DNA of 31,749 nucleotides from Parcubacteria group bacterium Athens0416_74 (GTDB lineage Bacteria; Patescibacteriota; Minisyncoccia; Phycocordibacterales; UBA2100). A model generated the notes under the pieces. It made no database searches and was not told the DNA's origin. It saw nothing but the letters and a program-made list of their open reading frames with translations. Shown piece by piece: positions 11,518-18,972 of this stretch. The DNA is taken from contig VMEY01000006.1 in assembly GCA_007375785.1 (NCBI GenBank), positions 1 to 31,749 on the forward strand, read 5' to 3'. Position 1 is the first letter of the stretch; each line of letters begins with the position of its first letter. The translations under genes were made by a program, and so were the position numbers.

Positions 11518-12660
11518 TCAATCAACGTCAAATGATAATTCCTGCCCGGGCTTCTCTACTCCTTTGCTAGATATTACAACGCGAGGTTCCGCAATTATTT
11601 CCCCTGCGACCTGCGCATCCATTCCATATCGTACTGCCTCTGCGAGTACCTTTTCTGGCTCAGGAGTAATCAGTGCCATCCCTTGTCCCATATTCCATGC
11701 GCGATATGCATCGTAATCCGAAATCGAACCTGTGCGCTGTACATATTGGACAATCTCACCAGGATCAAAAAGATTCTCGAGGCGAGCACCGAGCTTGGCC
11801 CTGCGAAGCACCCGAATCATCTTCTCAGGCACACCTCCGCCCGTGATGTGCGCGACACCATGTATCTCACACGTGCCCTCGGTGTCGAAGCCTCCGTGAA
11901 GCCCTGCCACGAATCGCGAGTAAATTCTCGATGGAGTGAGCGTAAGTTCGCCAAGTGTCGAACCCGCATGCTGTACCGTGTGCCACTCCTCGCCATGCAC
12001 ACTCTTCATGATTTTACGAACGAGTGAAAGGCCATTGCATCGAAAACCTTTTTCCTGCAACATGACCACCGCGTCTCCCGCCTTCATCTCAGTACCCGTC
12101 AATATTTTTTCTTTTCGAGCGACCCAGATGCATGCTGCGCCCCAATGGAATGGAAACTCTCCATATCCAGAAATGAGCGACCCCATCTGCGCTATTTCCC
12201 CGTTGATAACAGCCACATTGGCCTCTTTCGCGGCGGCAATATACCCTTCTCCGAGTTGCCGCATAATGGGTAGAAAATGATCGTCCATACCAACTGATTT
12301 TATGTCGAGGTTCGAACCAACGACGATTGATTCTCCACCGCGAATAAGAGCATCGTCACAAACCATGGCAAAAAGATCGAATGCGATCGTATTGTATCGA
12401 CCGACGCGCTCGGCTATTTCTACCTTCGTCCCGGCTCCATCAAAGCCGAGCGACATAAAACTTCCCTCGGGAAGCTTTGAAATGTTCACCATTTTTAGCC
12501 CTGCAAAATCATCAAACGGCGTGACTATTTCCCCTATACGTCCCGTACGATTCTCGAACGTCTTTTTTGACGCTTCATACATGATGCGCGAAGCTTCCGC
12601 CTCAACATCCACGTCGACTCCAGCGAGCGCGTAAGCGTTTGGCTTTCTCTCCTTTCCCAT
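11518..12660 (-). CDS. purM: AIR synthetase (phosphoribosylformylglycinamidine cyclo-ligase)
   Basis: YALAGVD, DGAGTK, DLFAMVCDD, GEIAQM, LTPSRIY, AHITGGG, WNMGQGM. Start ATG 12660. Confidence 0.93.
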   Translation of the reverse strand: MGKERKPNAYALAGVDVDVEAEASRIMYEASKKTFENRTGRIGEIVTPFDDFAGLKMVNISKLPEGSFMSLGFDGAGTKVEIAERVGRYNTIAFDLFAMVCDDALIRGGESIVVGSNLDIKSVGMDDHFLPIMRQLGEGYIAAAKEANVAVINGEIAQMGSLISGYGEFPFHWGAACIWVARKEKILTGTEMKAGDAVVMLQEKGFRCNGLSLVRKIMKSVHGEEWHTVQHAGSTLGELTLTPSRIYSRFVAGLHGGFDTEGTCEIHGVAHITGGGVPEKMIRVLRRAKLGARLENLFDPGEIVQYVQRTGSISDYDAYRAWNMGQGMALITPEPEKVLAEAVRYGMDAQVAGEIIAEPRVVISSKGVEKPGQELSFDVD

Positions 12661-12661
12661 A

Positions 12662-13189
12662 TTACTTCTGCTCTTCGAGATATGCTTTGTAGCCTTTTTC
12701 TTGAAGCTTTGCGTCTTTTGCGAGCACTTCGGACGACTGCTTTGCTTTGTGTGCTGCGACTTTCTCCGAGACTGACGCGTCGGTGAGCGCCACAATCTGT
12801 GCTGCGAGGACGCCTGCATTCTTGCCGCCATTGAGTCCTACGGTAGCTACAGGGACGCCGGGCGGCATCTGGACAATCGAGAGCACGGCGTCGAGTCCGC
12901 CAAGGGCTGAGCTCGATGACGTGAGCGGTATACCGATGACCGGAAGCGTTGTATGCGCAGCCACGGTGCCGGGTAGTGCGGCGGCCATGCCTGCGCCCGC
13001 AATAAAGACTTTGCATCCTCTCGCCTCGATGTCACGAATCCACTTCACCAAATCCTCCGGTACACGATGCGCAGAGAGGACACGCATTTCACTTGCTACG
13101 CCAAGCTGTTCGAGTACTTTGGCGGACTCCGCCATAAGTGCAAGGTCGCTGTCCGAGCCCATCACAATTCCGACGAGTGCTGTGTTCAT
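12662..13189 (-). CDS. purE: N5-CAIR mutase
   Basis: VGIVMGSDSD, SAHRVPE, AGAGMAAALPG, PVIGIP, SIVQMPPGVPVATV. Confidence 0.96.
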   Translation of the reverse strand: MNTALVGIVMGSDSDLALMAESAKVLEQLGVASEMRVLSAHRVPEDLVKWIRDIEARGCKVFIAGAGMAAALPGTVAAHTTLPVIGIPLTSSSSALGGLDAVLSIVQMPPGVPVATVGLNGGKNAGVLAAQIVALTDASVSEKVAAHKAKQSSEVLAKDAKLQEKGYKAYLEEQK

Positions 13190-13204
13190 AGTGAAAACAG
13201 CATA

Positions 13205-13732
13205 TCAAAGATTTGCGAGTATGAAATCGGCGCGCTCGGAAACCGGCATGACGGGCACTTCGACGATTTCGTAGCCCTGGTCCACGTATGCTTCGCGAAT
13301 CTGGCCGTGGATTATCATCGCCTGCTCCGGGGTCTCGGAGCGTGCCTCATCGGTGCGATAGTCGACAAGGTCGAGAAGAAAGACTTTTCGGTACCGTATC
13401 TCACTCATAGCGCGCACGAAGAACTCGTCGACGGGACGGTTGCTGAGCTTGTAGTACGCGAGACTATCCGGCATGGCTCTGTCAAAAAAGAAAAGTTCGT
13501 CTTTCGGCACCATGCTCTCTTGTGCGTGCGCACGGCGCACGACCGATGGAAGCCAATCAGAATCACCGACAATCTCTTGTATCGTGTGCCCTGCAGCAAG
13601 TTTTTCATCAATAATCAGTCGCGCGGGCTCGGCGAGGACCGGGTGGCCGCGACGTGCCAGCTCGTCTATCGTCGTGGTCTTGCCCGCGCAGGGGCCGCCA
13701 GTCAGTACATACCATGGAGGCGTTGATTCCAT
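13205..13732 (-). CDS. AAA_28/NadR-type P-loop NTPase (nucleotide-kinase-like)
   Basis: YVLTGGPCAGKTT, EPAR, FFDRAMPD, YRKVFLL, YVDQGYEIVEVP. Start ATG 13732 follows TGG-TATGAT by 7 nt. Confidence 0.8.
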   Translation of the reverse strand: MESTPPWYVLTGGPCAGKTTTIDELARRGHPVLAEPARLIIDEKLAAGHTIQEIVGDSDWLPSVVRRAHAQESMVPKDELFFFDRAMPDSLAYYKLSNRPVDEFFVRAMSEIRYRKVFLLDLVDYRTDEARSETPEQAMIIHGQIREAYVDQGYEIVEVPVMPVSERADFILANL

Positions 13733-13751
13733 GTGCGGCATCATACCAGAG

Positions 13752-13783
13752 AGACAACAAGAAGGGCACCTCATCGGTGCCCT
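13752..13783 (-). terminator. Intrinsic terminator after the gmk-like gene
   Basis: Perfect 8-bp stem AGGGCACC/GGTGCCCT (13763-13783), followed on the - strand by a U-rich tract (TCTTGTTGTCT). Confidence 0.7.
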
Positions 13784-13789
13784 CCTGAG

Positions 13790-14377
13790 TCAAACGGAGC
13801 AGTGCAGGAAGTCCCGCGCAGCGGAAAGGGCTCTCTGCTGTGCAATCAGCGGTGTCGGCGCCGAGTTGTCGATTACGAGATCGAAATCTGCGTAATCGTG
13901 CAGGTGCGGCGATACCGGGTCCGTCGACATGAGACGCATCACTTCCGCCTCGTCGATAGTTGGGTCGCGCGCTCTAATGCGCTTCCGTCTCTCCTCCGCA
14001 TCTGCGAAGACGCCGATGGTGAGGGCCAGACCGTTCAATTGCTGTCTCACGATGTCTCGCAAGGTACGAGCGCCGCTCGGCGTTATGTCGATGACGGAGC
14101 CACTTTCAGAGACCAGAAACTGTCCTCTATGTGTCCCCGACCGTTGTGTTTCGCCAATCTTGGCGTGATACACGAACTCTCCGGCCCTAAGCATGGCCTC
14201 AAAGTCCTGCAACGGCACGAAAAAATATTCGCGCCCATGCTGTTCTGACGGCCGTGGAGAACGCGTGGTATGCGGCGCAATTCTGTGCAGCTTTAGCTCA
14301 GAGCAGAGCGCGGTGACGATTGTCTCTTTGCCGGCCCCGCGCGGACCGCTTACGGTCACGAGTCGGATAGCAGGCAT
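13790..14377 (-). CDS. Guanylate-kinase-like protein, divergent
   Basis: SGPRGAGK P-loop and HTTRSPRPSEQHGREYFFV GK motif. The FLEW...YGT motif is altered to FVYH...RSGT. GGGAGG SD upstream. Confidence 0.75.
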   Translation of the reverse strand: MPAIRLVTVSGPRGAGKETIVTALCSELKLHRIAPHTTRSPRPSEQHGREYFFVPLQDFEAMLRAGEFVYHAKIGETQRSGTHRGQFLVSESGSVIDITPSGARTLRDIVRQQLNGLALTIGVFADAEERRKRIRARDPTIDEAEVMRLMSTDPVSPHLHDYADFDLVIDNSAPTPLIAQQRALSAARDFLHCSV

Positions 14378-14426
14378 GGGAGCCTCCCTGTGAATTCACT
14401 GCCGAGACTGTATCAATCCGTTCAGG

Positions 14427-14483
14427 TTATGCAAAGTAGCTCACCGCATTCCTAAACAGCGCAATTCCCGGACCCTCTTCAGG
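14427..14483 (-). repeat. Second copy of the purQ 3' end (PEEGPGIALFRNAVSYFA*)
   Basis: 14442-14480 is identical to 15230-15268 (39 bp). The next 5 codons are a recoded version of the purQ end. Confidence 0.95.
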
Positions 14484-15268
14484 CAAGTGAAGCGTTGAGG
14501 CTGTCATGCTTCTGAAGAAGACGATTCTACCTTGGCCACGAGTGATTGGAATCCCTCACAAACGGCATCGTACTCCGGTAGTGCGAAATGCGCACGCTCG
14601 CCTTGAACAATACGATTCATTTCCCTCAAGATGTGTAACAAAGTTTTTTTGTCGGAGTAAATAAATGGATCAACGTCAACGAGGTAGAGCCCTACATCGC
14701 TGTCCCCAACACGGCCGTATACGTATTGTGCCTCTTTAAAGACGTCGGCAAGAAATGACTGGTTACGTGCGAATTTGTCCTCATAGTACCGCAGGAGATT
14801 CTTTCGCAATTTTGCGAGCGCCGTACCCAGTTCACGGTCATTGATATTCTGCTCTACCGTGACCTTGTCTACGATTGCCAAGACGTCTGCTTTTGCCCTC
14901 GGAGTGTCTTGTTGTTTTTCGGCCACCATAAACGAGACCGGCACATGTATCCCATATTCCGATAACTCGTCAAAATGTTTCTTTGAAATCTGTGCGAAGC
15001 GTGTCGCGTTGATATTTTTCGTTGTTTCCCGTGGTTCAAATCGACTATTCGCTATAAACCACGACCAATTCAACGGCCGCACGATTATATCGTCTCGATT
15101 GGCGAATTTGTGAAGATCAGGATTTTTCTCCGGTGCGAGGTTCGATGCCTCCAGTTCGTGTTTAAACGCTGCAATACGAGGAACCCTTTCCATTCCGTGT
15201 ATGATAGCAAACCGCTACGCGAAATAGTCCACCGCATTCCTAAACAGCGCAATTCCCGGACCCTCTTC
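14442..15268. mobile_element. Single-gene islet integrated in the purQ 3' end (attL/attR-like direct repeats 788 bp apart)
   Basis: A 39-bp identical direct repeat encloses one orphan gene with its own -10 element. No integrase is present in the window. Confidence 0.7.
14504..15193 (-). CDS. Hypothetical protein, possible protein-kinase-like fold
   Basis: 229-aa ORF with TGC-TATCAT 7 nt upstream of the ATG. Motifs ELSEYGIHVP, FLADVFKEAQY and LYLVDVDP. Confidence 0.7.
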   Translation of the reverse strand: MERVPRIAAFKHELEASNLAPEKNPDLHKFANRDDIIVRPLNWSWFIANSRFEPRETTKNINATRFAQISKKHFDELSEYGIHVPVSFMVAEKQQDTPRAKADVLAIVDKVTVEQNINDRELGTALAKLRKNLLRYYEDKFARNQSFLADVFKEAQYVYGRVGDSDVGLYLVDVDPFIYSDKKTLLHILREMNRIVQGERAHFALPEYDAVCEGFQSLVAKVESSSSEA

Positions 15269-15985
15269 CGGTACGGGGGCACCGTCGCGCAGGTATCTCT
15301 CCTTTTCGCATGTCCACTGCGGGAGCTGTGTGAAGCGTATCGCGCGCTCGGGGTGCGGCATGAGGCCAAGAACCCGCCCGTCGTATGCCGTGACACCCGC
15401 GATATTCTCAAGTGCTCCATTGGGATTGCCCGGCAGGTCGAAGTGTTCGCTCATCGGCCCCCTCTCGTACCGAAGCGCTACCGCATCATCCTTTTTTAGC
15501 TGCGCCAGCGTCTTTTGGTCCGCGTAATACTTCCCCTCTCCGTGGGCAATCGGAAGCGAGAGTGACTCAATCCCGCGCAGCCACGGGCTATGTCCTTCGA
15601 CTTTCAAATCCACCCACCGGCAGATGAACCGTGCGGAGTCGTTGGCGATGAGTGCGCCCGGGAGCAGTCCCGCGCTCGTGAGAATCTGAAAGCCGTTGCA
15701 GATACCTATCGCGAGCGTATCTCGCTGCAAGAATGCATCCAACTCTTCTGAGAGGTGCTCCTTTACTCTATTCCCATACGCTTTGCCGGAGCCCGTGTCG
15801 TCACCATATGAAAAGCCTCCCGGGAATGCGAGTACTTGGGATTCCTTGAGCACCGACGGTGTCGCAATGATGTCGTTGATATGGCGTATGTGCGCCTCAG
15901 CCCCCGCAAACTCAAACGCAGCCTTAGTCTCCTCTTCGCAATTGAGTCCGTATCCCGAAAAGATTGTTACTTTTGGTTTTATCAT
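15215..15985 (-). CDS. purQ: FGAM synthase glutaminase subunit
   Basis: GYGLNCEEET, PGGFSYGDD, GICNGFQ, AHGEGKY, NPNG, GLMPHPER. Confidence 0.96.
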   Translation of the reverse strand: MIKPKVTIFSGYGLNCEEETKAAFEFAGAEAHIRHINDIIATPSVLKESQVLAFPGGFSYGDDTGSGKAYGNRVKEHLSEELDAFLQRDTLAIGICNGFQILTSAGLLPGALIANDSARFICRWVDLKVEGHSPWLRGIESLSLPIAHGEGKYYADQKTLAQLKKDDAVALRYERGPMSEHFDLPGNPNGALENIAGVTAYDGRVLGLMPHPERAIRFTQLPQWTCEKERYLRDGAPVPEEGPGIALFRNAVDYFA

Positions 15986-15987
15986 AG

Positions 15988-18957
15988 TTACCAGTCTTTA
16001 AAGGATGCGCGGTATGCAGCGGTGAGTGTACCGAGCGGAATCTTGAGCGTGCTCGAACCCGCGATAAGCGAAAGCTCACTCCCTTTCACCGTACCGATGC
16101 GTGTGCACTTCGCGCCCTTCATCGCCTTTTCAAACTCCGCCTCCATGCCGGCGCGCACGCTTACGAGAACACGACCCTGACTCTCCGAAAAAAGTATCGC
16201 ATCGTCGGATGATGCGTTGCCCGGAAGCTGAGAGAGATCGAGTAGTGCGCCGAGCTGTCCTCCAATTGCCGACTTCGAGAGCGCTACCGCGAGGCCTCCG
16301 CGCCCCACAGAGAGCGCCGACGCGATACAGCCTTTTTGTATCGCATGCTCGAGCGCTCTGTATGCGAGAAGGTTCTTCTTCGTGTGCGTGCGAGGCACGC
16401 CAGTCCCGACGTATGTTTTCTTTGCCTTTTCAGAGAGGAGAGCAAAGTACTCAGAAGCACCGAGTTCGTCGTGCGTCTCACCTATCAGATATATGCGGTC
16501 ACCCTCGGCCTTGAAATCTATTGTCACGGCACGCGAGACATCGTCGATGACACCGATGGCGGAAATCAAAAGGGTTGGCGGTGCGGCGATGTGTATCTTT
16601 TTGCCCTTTGCGTCAAAACCGCGGAAGTCGTTGAACATGCTGTCTTTGCCGGAAATGTACGGCGTACCATACGCGACCGCGGTGTCGTAGACGGCTTTTG
16701 CCGACTCTTTGAGCTCGTACAATCTCTCCGGCGTATTTGAAGAAGACCAGCAGAAATTGTCCAGAACCGCGAGATGCTCAAGCGAGGCACCGGCACACAC
16801 AGCGCTGCGCACTGCTGCATCTATCGAGGCAGCAGCCATCGCATATGTATCGATATCCGAGTACCAAGGGAAAAATCCATGACTGAGCACCACGCCCTTT
16901 TTTGAGTGAGGAAGTGGCTGGATGACACCTGCGTCCGCATTCACTCGCCCCCTACCCTGGAGTGGCTTCGTGACCGACGTGCCCTGCACTTCATGGTCGT
17001 ATTGCTGCGAGATAAACGAAATACTGCCGATATTGGAGCGAGAGAGAAGTGCAAGCAGAGACTTCTCGAGCGGCACGTTTCGAATACTCTTCGGCGGCTC
17101 GATATTCGTATAGACCGGCTTCCGAGTCTTCTGATGTTCGACAGGCCTTCCGTCGTGAAGGAATTCCATGTGCATATCCATAATCGTCTTGCCTTTGTAC
17201 TTCACGACGCACTTCCCCGAGGCGGTAAATTCGCCCACTACGCACGCTTCGACATCGTGTCTGTCGAAAAGTTTCTTTAATTCCTTCCAGTGCTTCTTTG
17301 GCACGGCAAATGTCATACGCTCCTGCGACTCCGAAATCCAAATCTGCCAGGGTGAGAGGCCCGGGTATTTGAGCGGTACTTTCTCGAGATTCACGAGTGC
17401 GCCGCCGCATTCTTTTGCCATCTCCGCGATGGAGCACGAGATACCACCCGCGCCGTTGTCGGTGATACTGGTGTAGAGCGCTCTATCGCGCGCCTCACGC
17501 ACCACCGCATCCGACATTTTCTTTTGCGTAATAGGGTCACCTATCTGCACCGCGGTAGCGGGCGACCCGCTCGCGAGTGCTTCAGAAGAAAATGTTGCGC
17601 CGTGTATGCCATCGAGGCCCACTCTCCCGCCCGCGACAACGATGTAATCTCCCGCTCGCGCTTTTTTCTTGTGAAGTACCCTGCCTGCACTTTTGCGCGG
17701 CAAGAAACCGACTGTACCGGCAAAAACAAGCGGTTTGCCGCGATACCGCGGATCAGTCGCGACAAAGCCGAGCGGCGTCGGTATGCCGCTTTGGTTGCCG
17801 CCCGCATTTACGCCCCTGATAACACCTTCAAGAATGCGGCGAGACGGCAGCAGCGGCTGCTTCTTAGCAGCGTCTCGATACACCGGCACGTCTTTATGAG
17901 GGTCTCCTACGCAATAACCGTACACATTGGCAATCGGTTTTGCTCCGAGCCCAAAACCGAGTGCGTCACGATTCACTCCCACAATGCCGGTAATAGCGCC
18001 GCCAAACGGGTCCAGCGCCGACGGAGAATTATGTGTCTCCACTTTGTGGGTAACAATGTATTCACCGTCGAATGCGATACCGCCCGCGTTGTCGGTAAAT
18101 ACCGAGAGACAAAAGTCTCTCTTTCCCTTTGATTTTCGAATCTTCTGCGTCGCCCCCTTTATGTATCGTTTGTAAATTCCCTCTTTCACTTCATCTATCG
18201 GGTCCGCAAATATGGAGTGCTTGCAATGTTCGGACCACGTCTGGGCCAGTGATTCGAGCTCTATGTCGGTCGGCAACCGCTTGAGCTTCCTGTAGTGCGA
18301 CTGAATCGTCTTCATTGCATTGAGCGAGAGCGCGAGCGGTCCGCGGCGCGTGCCGTCGGGATTGGCGACGCCCTCTTTCCCGATTCGTACAAGCTCGTCG
18401 TCAGAGACATCGAGGCTCACCGCATCGACAGCAACACGCTCGTGCAGATGCACCTGGGGTACCACGATAGGAAGCCCGCGCTTGGCTTGCTTGGCGTCAT
18501 AGATAGAGGCCCGTTCAATGAGCGGATTGTGAAGCTCTCGCGCCATTGCCTCCGCATCACTCCGCGACACTCCATCGAGAAATACAAAGAAGGATGTGTA
18601 CACATCTTCGTCTTTTTTGAGTTTCTTTCCCAGCGCATCCTCGAGCATCTGACGCGCTGTCTTTGCCACATTGTCCGTGACGCCCGGGTGGAAGCCTATT
18701 TCGATGACGAAGGTGTATTTCTTCGGTGCAATCACCCGCGAAGTCGAGTACTCATCGATGAGCGGGTTTGTGAGGCGCCTCGCGAACGTATCGATCTCCT
18801 TCGCTGTGAGCTTTGCGTCGACAGTATACGCTTGTGCGACTGCCACAGACCGAATCTTCGACCCGGGAAAGATGTCCCGGAGCGTGCGGAGGTAGCCGAG
18901 AGCTCGCGCATCTTCGACTTTCGCCGCTACCGTAATCCGCCGAGTCATTGTCCGCAT
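15988..18957 (-). CDS. purL: FGAM synthase synthetase subunit with N-terminal PurS-like domains
   Basis: QTWSEHCKH, DNAG, KVETHNSPS, GGRVGLDGIHGATFSS, DNGAGG, SESQERM, SGKDS, FSESQGR. About 190 extra N-terminal residues. The start may be 18972, 18957 or 18948. Confidence 0.95.
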   Translation of the reverse strand: MRTMTRRITVAAKVEDARALGYLRTLRDIFPGSKIRSVAVAQAYTVDAKLTAKEIDTFARRLTNPLIDEYSTSRVIAPKKYTFVIEIGFHPGVTDNVAKTARQMLEDALGKKLKKDEDVYTSFFVFLDGVSRSDAEAMARELHNPLIERASIYDAKQAKRGLPIVVPQVHLHERVAVDAVSLDVSDDELVRIGKEGVANPDGTRRGPLALSLNAMKTIQSHYRKLKRLPTDIELESLAQTWSEHCKHSIFADPIDEVKEGIYKRYIKGATQKIRKSKGKRDFCLSVFTDNAGGIAFDGEYIVTHKVETHNSPSALDPFGGAITGIVGVNRDALGFGLGAKPIANVYGYCVGDPHKDVPVYRDAAKKQPLLPSRRILEGVIRGVNAGGNQSGIPTPLGFVATDPRYRGKPLVFAGTVGFLPRKSAGRVLHKKKARAGDYIVVAGGRVGLDGIHGATFSSEALASGSPATAVQIGDPITQKKMSDAVVREARDRALYTSITDNGAGGISCSIAEMAKECGGALVNLEKVPLKYPGLSPWQIWISESQERMTFAVPKKHWKELKKLFDRHDVEACVVGEFTASGKCVVKYKGKTIMDMHMEFLHDGRPVEHQKTRKPVYTNIEPPKSIRNVPLEKSLLALLSRSNIGSISFISQQYDHEVQGTSVTKPLQGRGRVNADAGVIQPLPHSKKGVVLSHGFFPWYSDIDTYAMAAASIDAAVRSAVCAGASLEHLAVLDNFCWSSSNTPERLYELKESAKAVYDTAVAYGTPYISGKDSMFNDFRGFDAKGKKIHIAAPPTLLISAIGVIDDVSRAVTIDFKAEGDRIYLIGETHDELGASEYFALLSEKAKKTYVGTGVPRTHTKKNLLAYRALEHAIQKGCIASALSVGRGGLAVALSKSAIGGQLGALLDLSQLPGNASSDDAILFSESQGRVLVSVRAGMEAEFEKAMKGAKCTRIGTVKGSELSLIAGSSTLKIPLGTLTAAYRASFKDW

Positions 18958-18972
18958 GATAGCCTCTGACAC

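Follow-up and report, generated by a model that had tools for sequence, protein, structure and literature searches.

The 31,749-nucleotide contig VMEY01000006.1 of Parcubacteria group bacterium Athens0416_74 (hereafter the window; it is one whole contig of an assembly of 795,370 bases in 94 contigs, 89% complete) carries, directly behind the purine biosynthesis gene purQ, a 788-bp piece of DNA that holds a single gene, orf229, and is bracketed by two copies of the purQ 3' end. Precisely these 788 bp are missing from close relatives, which makes the unit a genuine cassette that is gained and lost; it has no insertion enzyme of its own. The host is a groundwater bacterium of the Patescibacteria with a tiny genome.

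A one-gene cassette present or absent behind purQ

All genes of the locus lie on the minus strand, in the order purL (15988-18972), purQ, orf229, the copy of the purQ end, a gmk-like gene, an AAA_28 gene (13205-13774), purE (12662-13189) and a purM-like gene. The duplicated part of purQ is its last 19 codons, and the single open reading frame (ORF) between the copies is orf229, of 229 aa. The two copies form a direct repeat of 56 nt, 89% identical and spaced by 788 nt (Table 1). They share an identical 39-nt core, which our repeat search placed exactly where an initial annotation, made from the letters of the window, had reported it; this 39-mer is present at those two places only in the 795,370-base genome, and the reversed control gave 0 matches. 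The C terminus of PurQ reads VPEEGPGIALFRNAVDYFA, and the downstream copy (14427-14486) translates to LPEEGPGIALFRNAVSYFA, each followed by a stop codon. Codon comparison also bore out the statement that five of the six codons flanking the identical block differ synonymously (CCG/CCT, TAT/TAC, TTC/TTT, GCG/GCA and TAG/TAA). The remaining one, GAC/AGC, exchanges D for S, and a seventh differing codon, GTA/TTG (V/L), lies farther upstream. Within the repeat, GGAAT(T)GCG is directly duplicated, and a repeat search of the window found no inverted repeat or palindrome in or beside the 56-nt copies. An extension of the purQ duplication into the 20-nt spacer was ruled out, identity there being about that of chance as judged by eye.

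The initial annotation had predicted empty sites at which purQ would end in SYFA, and such sites exist. The closest PurQ, P0009, is 91% identical and ends in FRNSVSYFA. On the three contigs that carry its gene (L041, L042 and L043) purQ ends in SYFA and is followed by 50 nt and then by gmk-like, AAA_28, purE and purM genes, which is the window order minus the 788-bp unit. In sequencing run X4, one contig of a population ~95% identical to the window joins position 14484 to position 15273, skipping exactly 788 nt, at a depth of 10.7; read depth there is 0-1.5 over the insert vs 10-24 in both flanks. The occupied arrangement is spanned by contigs of two other populations, X20 and X2, which are ~94-95% identical.

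A more divergent occupied locus, L036, comes from another sample and reads purQ (ending DYFA), orf232, remnant (ending SCFA), and then HAD, AAA_28, AAA_28 and purE instead of gmk; its orf232 and orf229 are 78% identical. L082 represents the empty version of this gene order: a PurQ that is 82% identical and ends in SYFA is followed there by the same HAD-AAA_28-AAA_28-purE series. What follows the same cassette thus differs, being gmk in the window but HAD in L036. Nucleotide identity is ~80% between the window and L041, ~91% between L036 and L041, and ~71% between L082 and each of the window, L036 and L041. An assembly artefact can be ruled out, as the occupied form appears in independent assemblies of three other samples (L036 and the spanning X20 and X2 contigs).

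To tell the older purQ end from the newer one, we compared the last 60 nt of purQ at empty sites with the remnants and the in-gene ends of occupied sites. The L041 tail differs from the L036 remnant at 5 positions and from the L036 in-gene end at 10; against the window, the corresponding counts are 9 and 16. For the L082 tail they are 11 and 16 against L036 and 12 and 15 against the window. Because the empty-site tails are nearer to the remnants (5-12 of 60) than to the in-gene ends (10-16), the remnant is identified as the displaced host end: on this comparison, DYFA arrived with the insert, whereas SYFA is the host original that was displaced. That order, a replacement end coming in and the original left at the far side, is the one that the initial annotation had proposed. 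One informative case places the crossover: as far as CTTTTT, the L041 tail is the same as the in-gene copy of L036, and from CGC on it matches the L036 remnant, which puts the exchange between those two points. Such a hybrid tail would be expected alike from insertion into an L041-like site and from deletion from an L036-like allele.

Table 1. Features of the purQ locus in the window, with the basis of each assignment
Feature	Position	Strand	Basis
purQ, FGAM synthase glutaminase subunit, 256 aa, now ending FRNAVDYFA	15215..15985	minus	Pfam GATase_5 2e-72; NCBIfam FGAM_synth_I above cut-off
In-gene (upstream) repeat copy, replacement 3' end brought by the insert; core 15230-15268	15216..15271	minus	Repeat search, tail comparison
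21-nt spacer, with TGCTATCAT at 15201-15209 as putative extended -10-like box, 7 nt upstream of the orf229 start codon (ATG)	15194..15214	minus	Conserved motif; predicted promoter
orf229, sole cargo gene, probable protein-kinase-like fold	14504..15193	minus	Structure model, contexts
Non-conserved spacer from the orf229 stop to the remnant	14487..14503	minus	~45% different from L036, 1-nt indel; X20 1-nt deletion at 14492
Remnant, displaced original purQ 3' end, LPEEGPGIALFRNAVSYFA then stop; repeat copy 14428-14483, core 14442-14480	14427..14486	minus	Closest to L041/L082 purQ tails, ending SYFA
788-bp unit, present or absent as a whole; equally writable as 14428-15215	14484..15271	minus	X4 contig
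gmk-like kinase gene, old downstream neighbor of purQ	13790..14377	minus	Pfam Guanylate_kin 4e-15; 50 nt after purQ in empty site L041

Age of the cassette and upkeep of the displaced end

The comparison of orf229 with orf232 of L036 gave 0.123 nonsynonymous (dN) and 0.915 synonymous (dS) substitutions per site, a dN/dS ratio of 0.135. Flanking genes gave dS values of 0.67 (purE), 1.5 (AAA_28) and 0.93 (gmk, compared between the window and L041), and in run X2 insert and flanks alike show ~95% identity to the window. By these substitution patterns, orf229 is evidently a working gene under purifying selection that has diverged together with its surroundings. Because the cargo is as diverged as its flanks, the cassette does not look like a recent jumper, and we see no sign of recent horizontal spread.

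At a dS near 0.9, a neutral relic is expected to be nearly randomized. The 20-21-nt spacer before the remnant fits this expectation: the window and L036 differ there by ~45% and by a 1-nt indel, and X20 has another 1-nt deletion. By contrast, only 10 of 60 nt differ between the remnant of the window and that of L036, and seven of the nine differing codons are synonymous. Moreover, the two copies have changed in parallel: in the window both share the derived synonymous states GAG, CCG, GGA and CTG, in L036 (both copies) and in L041 the states are GAA, CCC, GGC and CTT, and the outgroup L082 has three of the latter together with GGA. This parallel change is best explained by gene conversion between the selected in-gene copy and the remnant. 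Because gene conversion would account for it, the 39-nt identity needs no conserved attachment (att) core, and it is better explained by conversion than by such a core.

A different reason for the conservation would be that the downstream copy is kept for a function, as a regulatory RNA, a promoter for the next gene or a small peptide, so that the duplication is adaptive and not a scar. In favor of this, the remnant is far better conserved than the adjoining spacer and than synonymous sites, and the corresponding remnant at a second locus, behind smc (described below), is a 39-codon ORF with an ATG start in the genome of the window (G000) as well as in L080. However, structured RNA in the remnant or spacer was ruled out, as no stable or covarying structure was found there (z = -0.48, with 1 of 23 pairs compensatory), and no promoter-like site was found in the tail copy. 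The frame relation of the remnant to the upstream stop and start differs among the window, L036 and X20. Because of the spacer indels in L036 and X20, the remnant has no fixed reading-frame link to orf229, and a conserved small ORF starting from the remnant was ruled out by the same 1-nt differences. Finally, the synonymous states peculiar to the remnant of the window are those of its in-gene copy, which indicates conversion. We therefore regard a function of the tail copy as very improbable.

Entry by homology or by a recombinase

In a genome-wide scan for local direct repeats, tail duplications were found at purQ and smc only; the other local repeats were tandem paralogues (C62, C71) or repeated intergenic hairpin-like or promoter-like sequences (C19, C85). 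On contig C63 (8675-9529, the same as L049:3176-4030) the last ~33 codons of smc (...AAGELYGVTM.NDGVSKLLSVKFEEAAKVAK, then stop) occur twice, 738 nt apart, as copies of 100 nt that are 93% identical. The one ORF between them, orf164 (L049:3412-3906, minus strand), has no Pfam match, and the downstream copy precedes a 74-codon ORF and then rpsP. The body of smc is on another contig, C58, where it is broken 49 codons before the stop. In L080, whose DNA is 89% identical, smc is complete and the series smc-orf140-remnant-orf74-rpsP stands on one contig (L080:1711-5475). In relatives such as G003, rpsP comes 36 nt after smc; more distant orf164 homologues likewise lie between smc and rpsP. The two smc copies differ at 10 of 105 nt within G000; orthologous copies of G000 and L080 differ at 17-21.

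The purQ and smc repeats have no 7-mer in common on either strand, by which a common att core was ruled out. Because the smc duplication arose at a repeat without even a 7-mer in common with that of purQ, the unrelated smc sequence argues for recombination driven by homology over recombination that is sequence specific.

Some further features of smc ends may be recorded here. At the end of C63 (L049:4010-4032), the last ~20 nt upstream of the smc tail encode FLRVE vs THNRAT (the H-loop) in smc relatives; the join of C58 and C63 within smc is unassembled, and an extra copy or a contig-end error is possible. In two relatives from the genus (L056:2201-2283 and L070:1986-2069), the smc stop is followed by a ~82-nt piece with a GC-rich hairpin and then by a copy of the last 11-13 smc codons, reading IGVKLEEAERVAK and VKFEGAERVVK, respectively, before a stop: a gene-end copy without an intervening gene. 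The intergenic sequences of C19 (3374-6624; terminator-like hairpins of 37-56 nt) and C85 (1542-3211; promoter-like sequences of 33-53 nt) are each repeated three or four times at a spacing of 0.3-2 kb, between small genes.

The initial annotation had noted the lack of an integrase, and no recombinase gene is present in the 31.7-kb window. The genome search that it proposed returned one tyrosine and one serine recombinase, both on other contigs. The former, the sole tyrosine recombinase of the genome, is a 264-aa Xer-type protein (C30); the latter is a large serine recombinase of at least 474 aa with Resolvase, Recombinase and Zn_ribbon_recom domains, encoded on the 2.9-kb contig C82 (L045:1-1422) beside an AAA_15/AAA_23 ATPase gene. 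Of the 151 genomes of the family, 99 have large serine recombinases, up to 9 per genome, and none of 30 sampled loci of this kind adjoins a purQ or smc tail, orf229 or orf164. Regarding homologous recombination and DNA uptake, ComEC and DprA were found in the genome, and RecA was found in 18 of 18 genus relatives searched.

A recombinase encoded elsewhere could nevertheless be responsible. In that case the locus would resemble a cis-mobilizable element (CIME), with the tail copies acting as attL and attR of a serine or Xer-type recombinase and a 788-bp circle being excised and reinserted at purQ ends. The layout is the classic one, in which the element restores the 3' end of its target and the old end lies at the far side; the empty sites (L041-type, X4 and L082) are exact; the same cassette stands before gmk and before HAD; and the wide distribution of large serine recombinases includes the source genome. 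Against it stand the lack of a recombinase in the contig, the 0 of 30 sampled serine-recombinase loci, the lack of a motif common to the purQ and smc repeats, the lack of an inverted repeat or palindrome in the repeat, the co-divergence of cargo and flanks with no near-identical copy elsewhere, and the failure to find a viral or plasmid relative. We consider a satellite of this kind rather unlikely. Of the att-site interpretation given in the initial annotation, the layout of replacement and displaced ends stands, but nothing shows site-specific recombination or current mobility; the cargo co-diverges with its flanks (dS 0.92), near-identical copies are lacking and the smc repeat is unrelated.

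Instead, we lean towards an account in which an old single-gene cassette entered the 3' end of purQ by homology-guided recombination and not through a dedicated site-specific enzyme. Donor DNA would have carried the last ~60 nt of purQ from another lineage (ending NAVDYFA), the 21-nt spacer with its -10-like box, orf229 and ~20 nt of trailing sequence. A single crossover inside the purQ tail, either as a Campbell-type insertion of circular DNA or in an equivalent way, would have given purQ the incoming end and moved the original one (ending NAVSYFA) 788 bp downstream, where it still precedes the old neighbor. The arrangement has been inherited and has diverged along with its flanks. Gene conversion between the tail copies would keep both alike, in the pattern described above. 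Homologous recombination between them would remove exactly 788 bp and restore purQ with its SYFA end, which is the outcome seen at the empty sites, and presence/absence polymorphism among close relatives would result. Empty alleles may also be replaced by occupied ones through a double crossover in the flanks after DNA uptake.

Several points weigh against entry by homology. The founding event was not observed, and a single crossover requires a small circular donor of unexplained origin. Insertion and deletion predict the same hybrid tails, so that the direction of each change stays ambiguous. The genome has two cassettes of comparable size (788 and 738 bp), which hints that a regular process is at work, and action in trans is possible, since large serine recombinases are common in the family and one is encoded in this genome on a short contig. 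RecA was not found in the 89%-complete assembly. Lastly, direct selection, instead of gene conversion, could be the reason why the remnant is unusually conserved.

Known elements share parts of this organization. Genomic islands that target gene 3' ends bring a replacement end, as outlined for SGI1 at the 3' end of trmE (PMC8409611), and CIMEs are presented as decayed elements that keep attL and attR without an integrase (PMC5704250). In both, as at purQ, direct repeats of the target 3' end flank the insert, the gene is restored by the incoming copy with the old end at the far side, and the empty site corresponds to recombination between the repeats; like CIMEs, the purQ cassette has no internal recombinase. 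It differs from these islands and CIMEs in its size of 788 bp, its single metabolic-type gene and its host from the Patescibacteria, in the lack of a cognate integrase in the contig or in tandem with the cassette, in showing no sign of horizontal spread and in having a second locus, smc, with an unrelated repeat. Homologous recombination during natural transformation yields merodiploid duplications bordered by repeats (PMC3784515). As in Campbell-type insertion, the purQ insert is bracketed by a direct duplication homologous to the host, is reversible through the repeats and needs no specific site sequence. Unlike the known cases, which are laboratory events or large unstable duplications, the purQ duplication of 57-63 nt has been kept across a dS of ~0.9 and brackets one foreign gene.

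In the C-terminal displacement arrays of Rhs and CdiA (orphan strings) and in the mobile ORFs at gene ends of fungal mitochondria, a new 3' end and a linked gene arrive together by recombination within the conserved portion of the gene. The old 3' end is likewise left downstream there as an untranslated relic, but the new and old purQ ends encode nearly the same peptide, so that there is no functional swap, and the purQ cargo is not an immunity gene, nor does it encode an endonuclease. Integron cassettes and the Xer-dependent dif modules, or integrative mobile elements exploiting Xer (IMEX), are one-gene units without a recombinase of their own, as is the purQ cassette. Unlike the former, the purQ repeats have no attC-type palindrome, and the sole tyrosine recombinase is the 264-aa Xer-type protein; unlike the latter, they have no 28-bp dif-like 11-6-11 inverted arms. 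The purQ repeats differ from both in being coding 3' ends in direct orientation. Tycheposons of streamlined Prochlorococcus are described as mobile elements that excise from and integrate at seven tRNA genes (10.1101/2020.12.28.424599). As in the islands that they are said there to remodel, flexible genes gather here at conserved gene ends within a very small genome; compared with what that report says of tycheposons, no tRNA target, excision or mobility gene was seen at the purQ locus.

To our knowledge, few classical mobile elements have been described for the ultra-small, host-dependent Patescibacteria, so that the gain and loss of accessory genes in them is poorly understood. The purQ locus offers a clean natural example, with occupied and empty alleles in near relatives, distinguishable incoming and displaced ends and a second independent case. 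If the process is driven by homology, small genomes could reshuffle genes one by one at the ends of conserved genes with no dedicated enzyme, and the leftover gene ends could serve as markers for the systematic finding of cassettes. It is a tentative and somewhat doubtful extension that Patescibacteria regularly insert one-gene units (a -10 box plus a leaderless ORF) behind conserved genes by gene-end homology and without a recombinase. The displaced end, maintained by conversion, would then be the site for precise loss and regain, the cassette would be a population-level on/off module, and purQ and smc would be instances.

The cargo gene and the variable purQ-purE region

The GC check of the insert suggested by the initial annotation gave 46.8% for orf229 (49% at third codon positions) vs 55-59% (59-66%) for its neighbors, and 2.3% of genome windows of 690 nt are as AT-rich. 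Distant orf229 homologues in chromosomal nucleotide clusters have the same low GC content (47-48%). Because these homologues are equally low in GC, the composition of orf229 is a family trait and no proof of recent foreign origin. This bears on yet another origin for the locus, as the remnant of a larger integrated element (a prophage, plasmid or island) that lost its own integrase and kept one gene and the far att site. Replacement and displaced ends fit any integrase-borne element, and the cargo is AT-rich relative to the genome. However, the same tight boundaries (21 nt before the gene and ~20 nt after it) recur in lineages that are a dS of ~0.9 apart, there is no relic of mobility genes, and the distant homologues stand in chromosomal nucleotide-metabolism clusters and not in mobile elements. 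We judge decay from a larger element to be quite improbable. A phage origin in particular is unsupported, as no relative of orf229 was found in viral contigs and it has no PHROG or PADLOC match.

Nor does orf229 match Pfam or NCBIfam. An AlphaFold (AF2) model with 8 homologues reached a predicted local distance difference test (pLDDT) score of 88.6, and its matches among PDB and Swiss-Prot models were all protein-kinase-like folds (Bud32, Rio2, Kdo kinase and MAP kinases), with probabilities up to 0.99 and template modeling (TM) scores of only 0.3-0.46. An Atlas structure search gave TM scores of 0.57-0.62 to DUF6206 and Kdo-kinase clusters, and D173, in the motif VDVDP, is invariant in the 8 homologues. 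By its modeled fold, orf229 is probably a small-molecule or nucleotide-related kinase.

The orf229 family is rare: among 5.8 billion proteins we found only four homologues, 78, 50, 51 and 39% identical, and no near-identical copy. Searches of further genome and metagenome collections added two more distant loci only, one of them the already seen contig L038, and 5 of 150 other family genomes searched had relatives that are 28-34% identical. An AAA_28 kinase-type gene is usually near these homologues: it adjoins them in L037 and L038/L039, and in the window and L036 one gene stands between; contig L040, of 1.4 kb, stops just past its homologue. The homologues lie in nucleotide gene clusters with the order DHFR, small zinc-ribbon gene, orf229, AAA_28 and purE/purK. 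The cargo suggests an uncharacterized family, probably of kinase fold, that is associated with purine and nucleotide gene clusters.

In the window, L036, L037, L038 and L040, the motif TTCTGnTAyAyT lies 6-7 nt before the ATG of the orf229 homologue, in upstream DNA that is otherwise unrelated. This box is a probable extended -10 promoter of a leaderless mRNA. The description of the insert in the initial annotation as a promoter plus one gene is made plausible by the conservation of the box in five loci, although a two-hexamer promoter scan found no promoter or terminator on the coding strand of the insert. More generally, genes of the cluster often lack a Shine-Dalgarno sequence and carry a -10-like box 6-7 nt upstream of the ATG, as in TATAAT-GCGCTCG-ATG in front of AAA_28 (L083:4771-4793) and TGCTATCAT-ACACGGA-ATG before orf229 (window 15194-15214). 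Such boxes suggest that these genes are leaderless single-gene transcription units.

Named PurQ homologues come from Patescibacteria, Paceibacterota and 'Kaiserbacteria'. We surveyed 25 purQ loci from species of the same genus, with PurQ proteins 65-76% identical. At most of them purE directly follows purQ, and none of the 25 has a second purQ tail within 1.5 kb. Because different genes stand there among the genus loci, the purQ-purE junction is a variable spot in the genus. Its contents (window 12662-15985 and L007-L033) range from nothing to a HAD-type hydrolase gene (220 or 277 aa), one or two AAA_28 genes, a gmk-like gene, a gene for a 191-aa membrane protein and small ORFs.

Neighboring segments of this region also appear to have been swapped between lineages, a mosaic that fits the account of entry by homology. 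The purM-like gene of the window (11518-12831, 437 aa) is of another type than the 373-aa purM of L036 and L041. Its protein is 24-28% identical to most purM products of the genus and 66-77% identical to those of L022, L029 and L033. The purE and purC genes beside it align at 83-88%, whereas the purM-like gene itself does not align at the DNA level, and it looks like a swapped segment.

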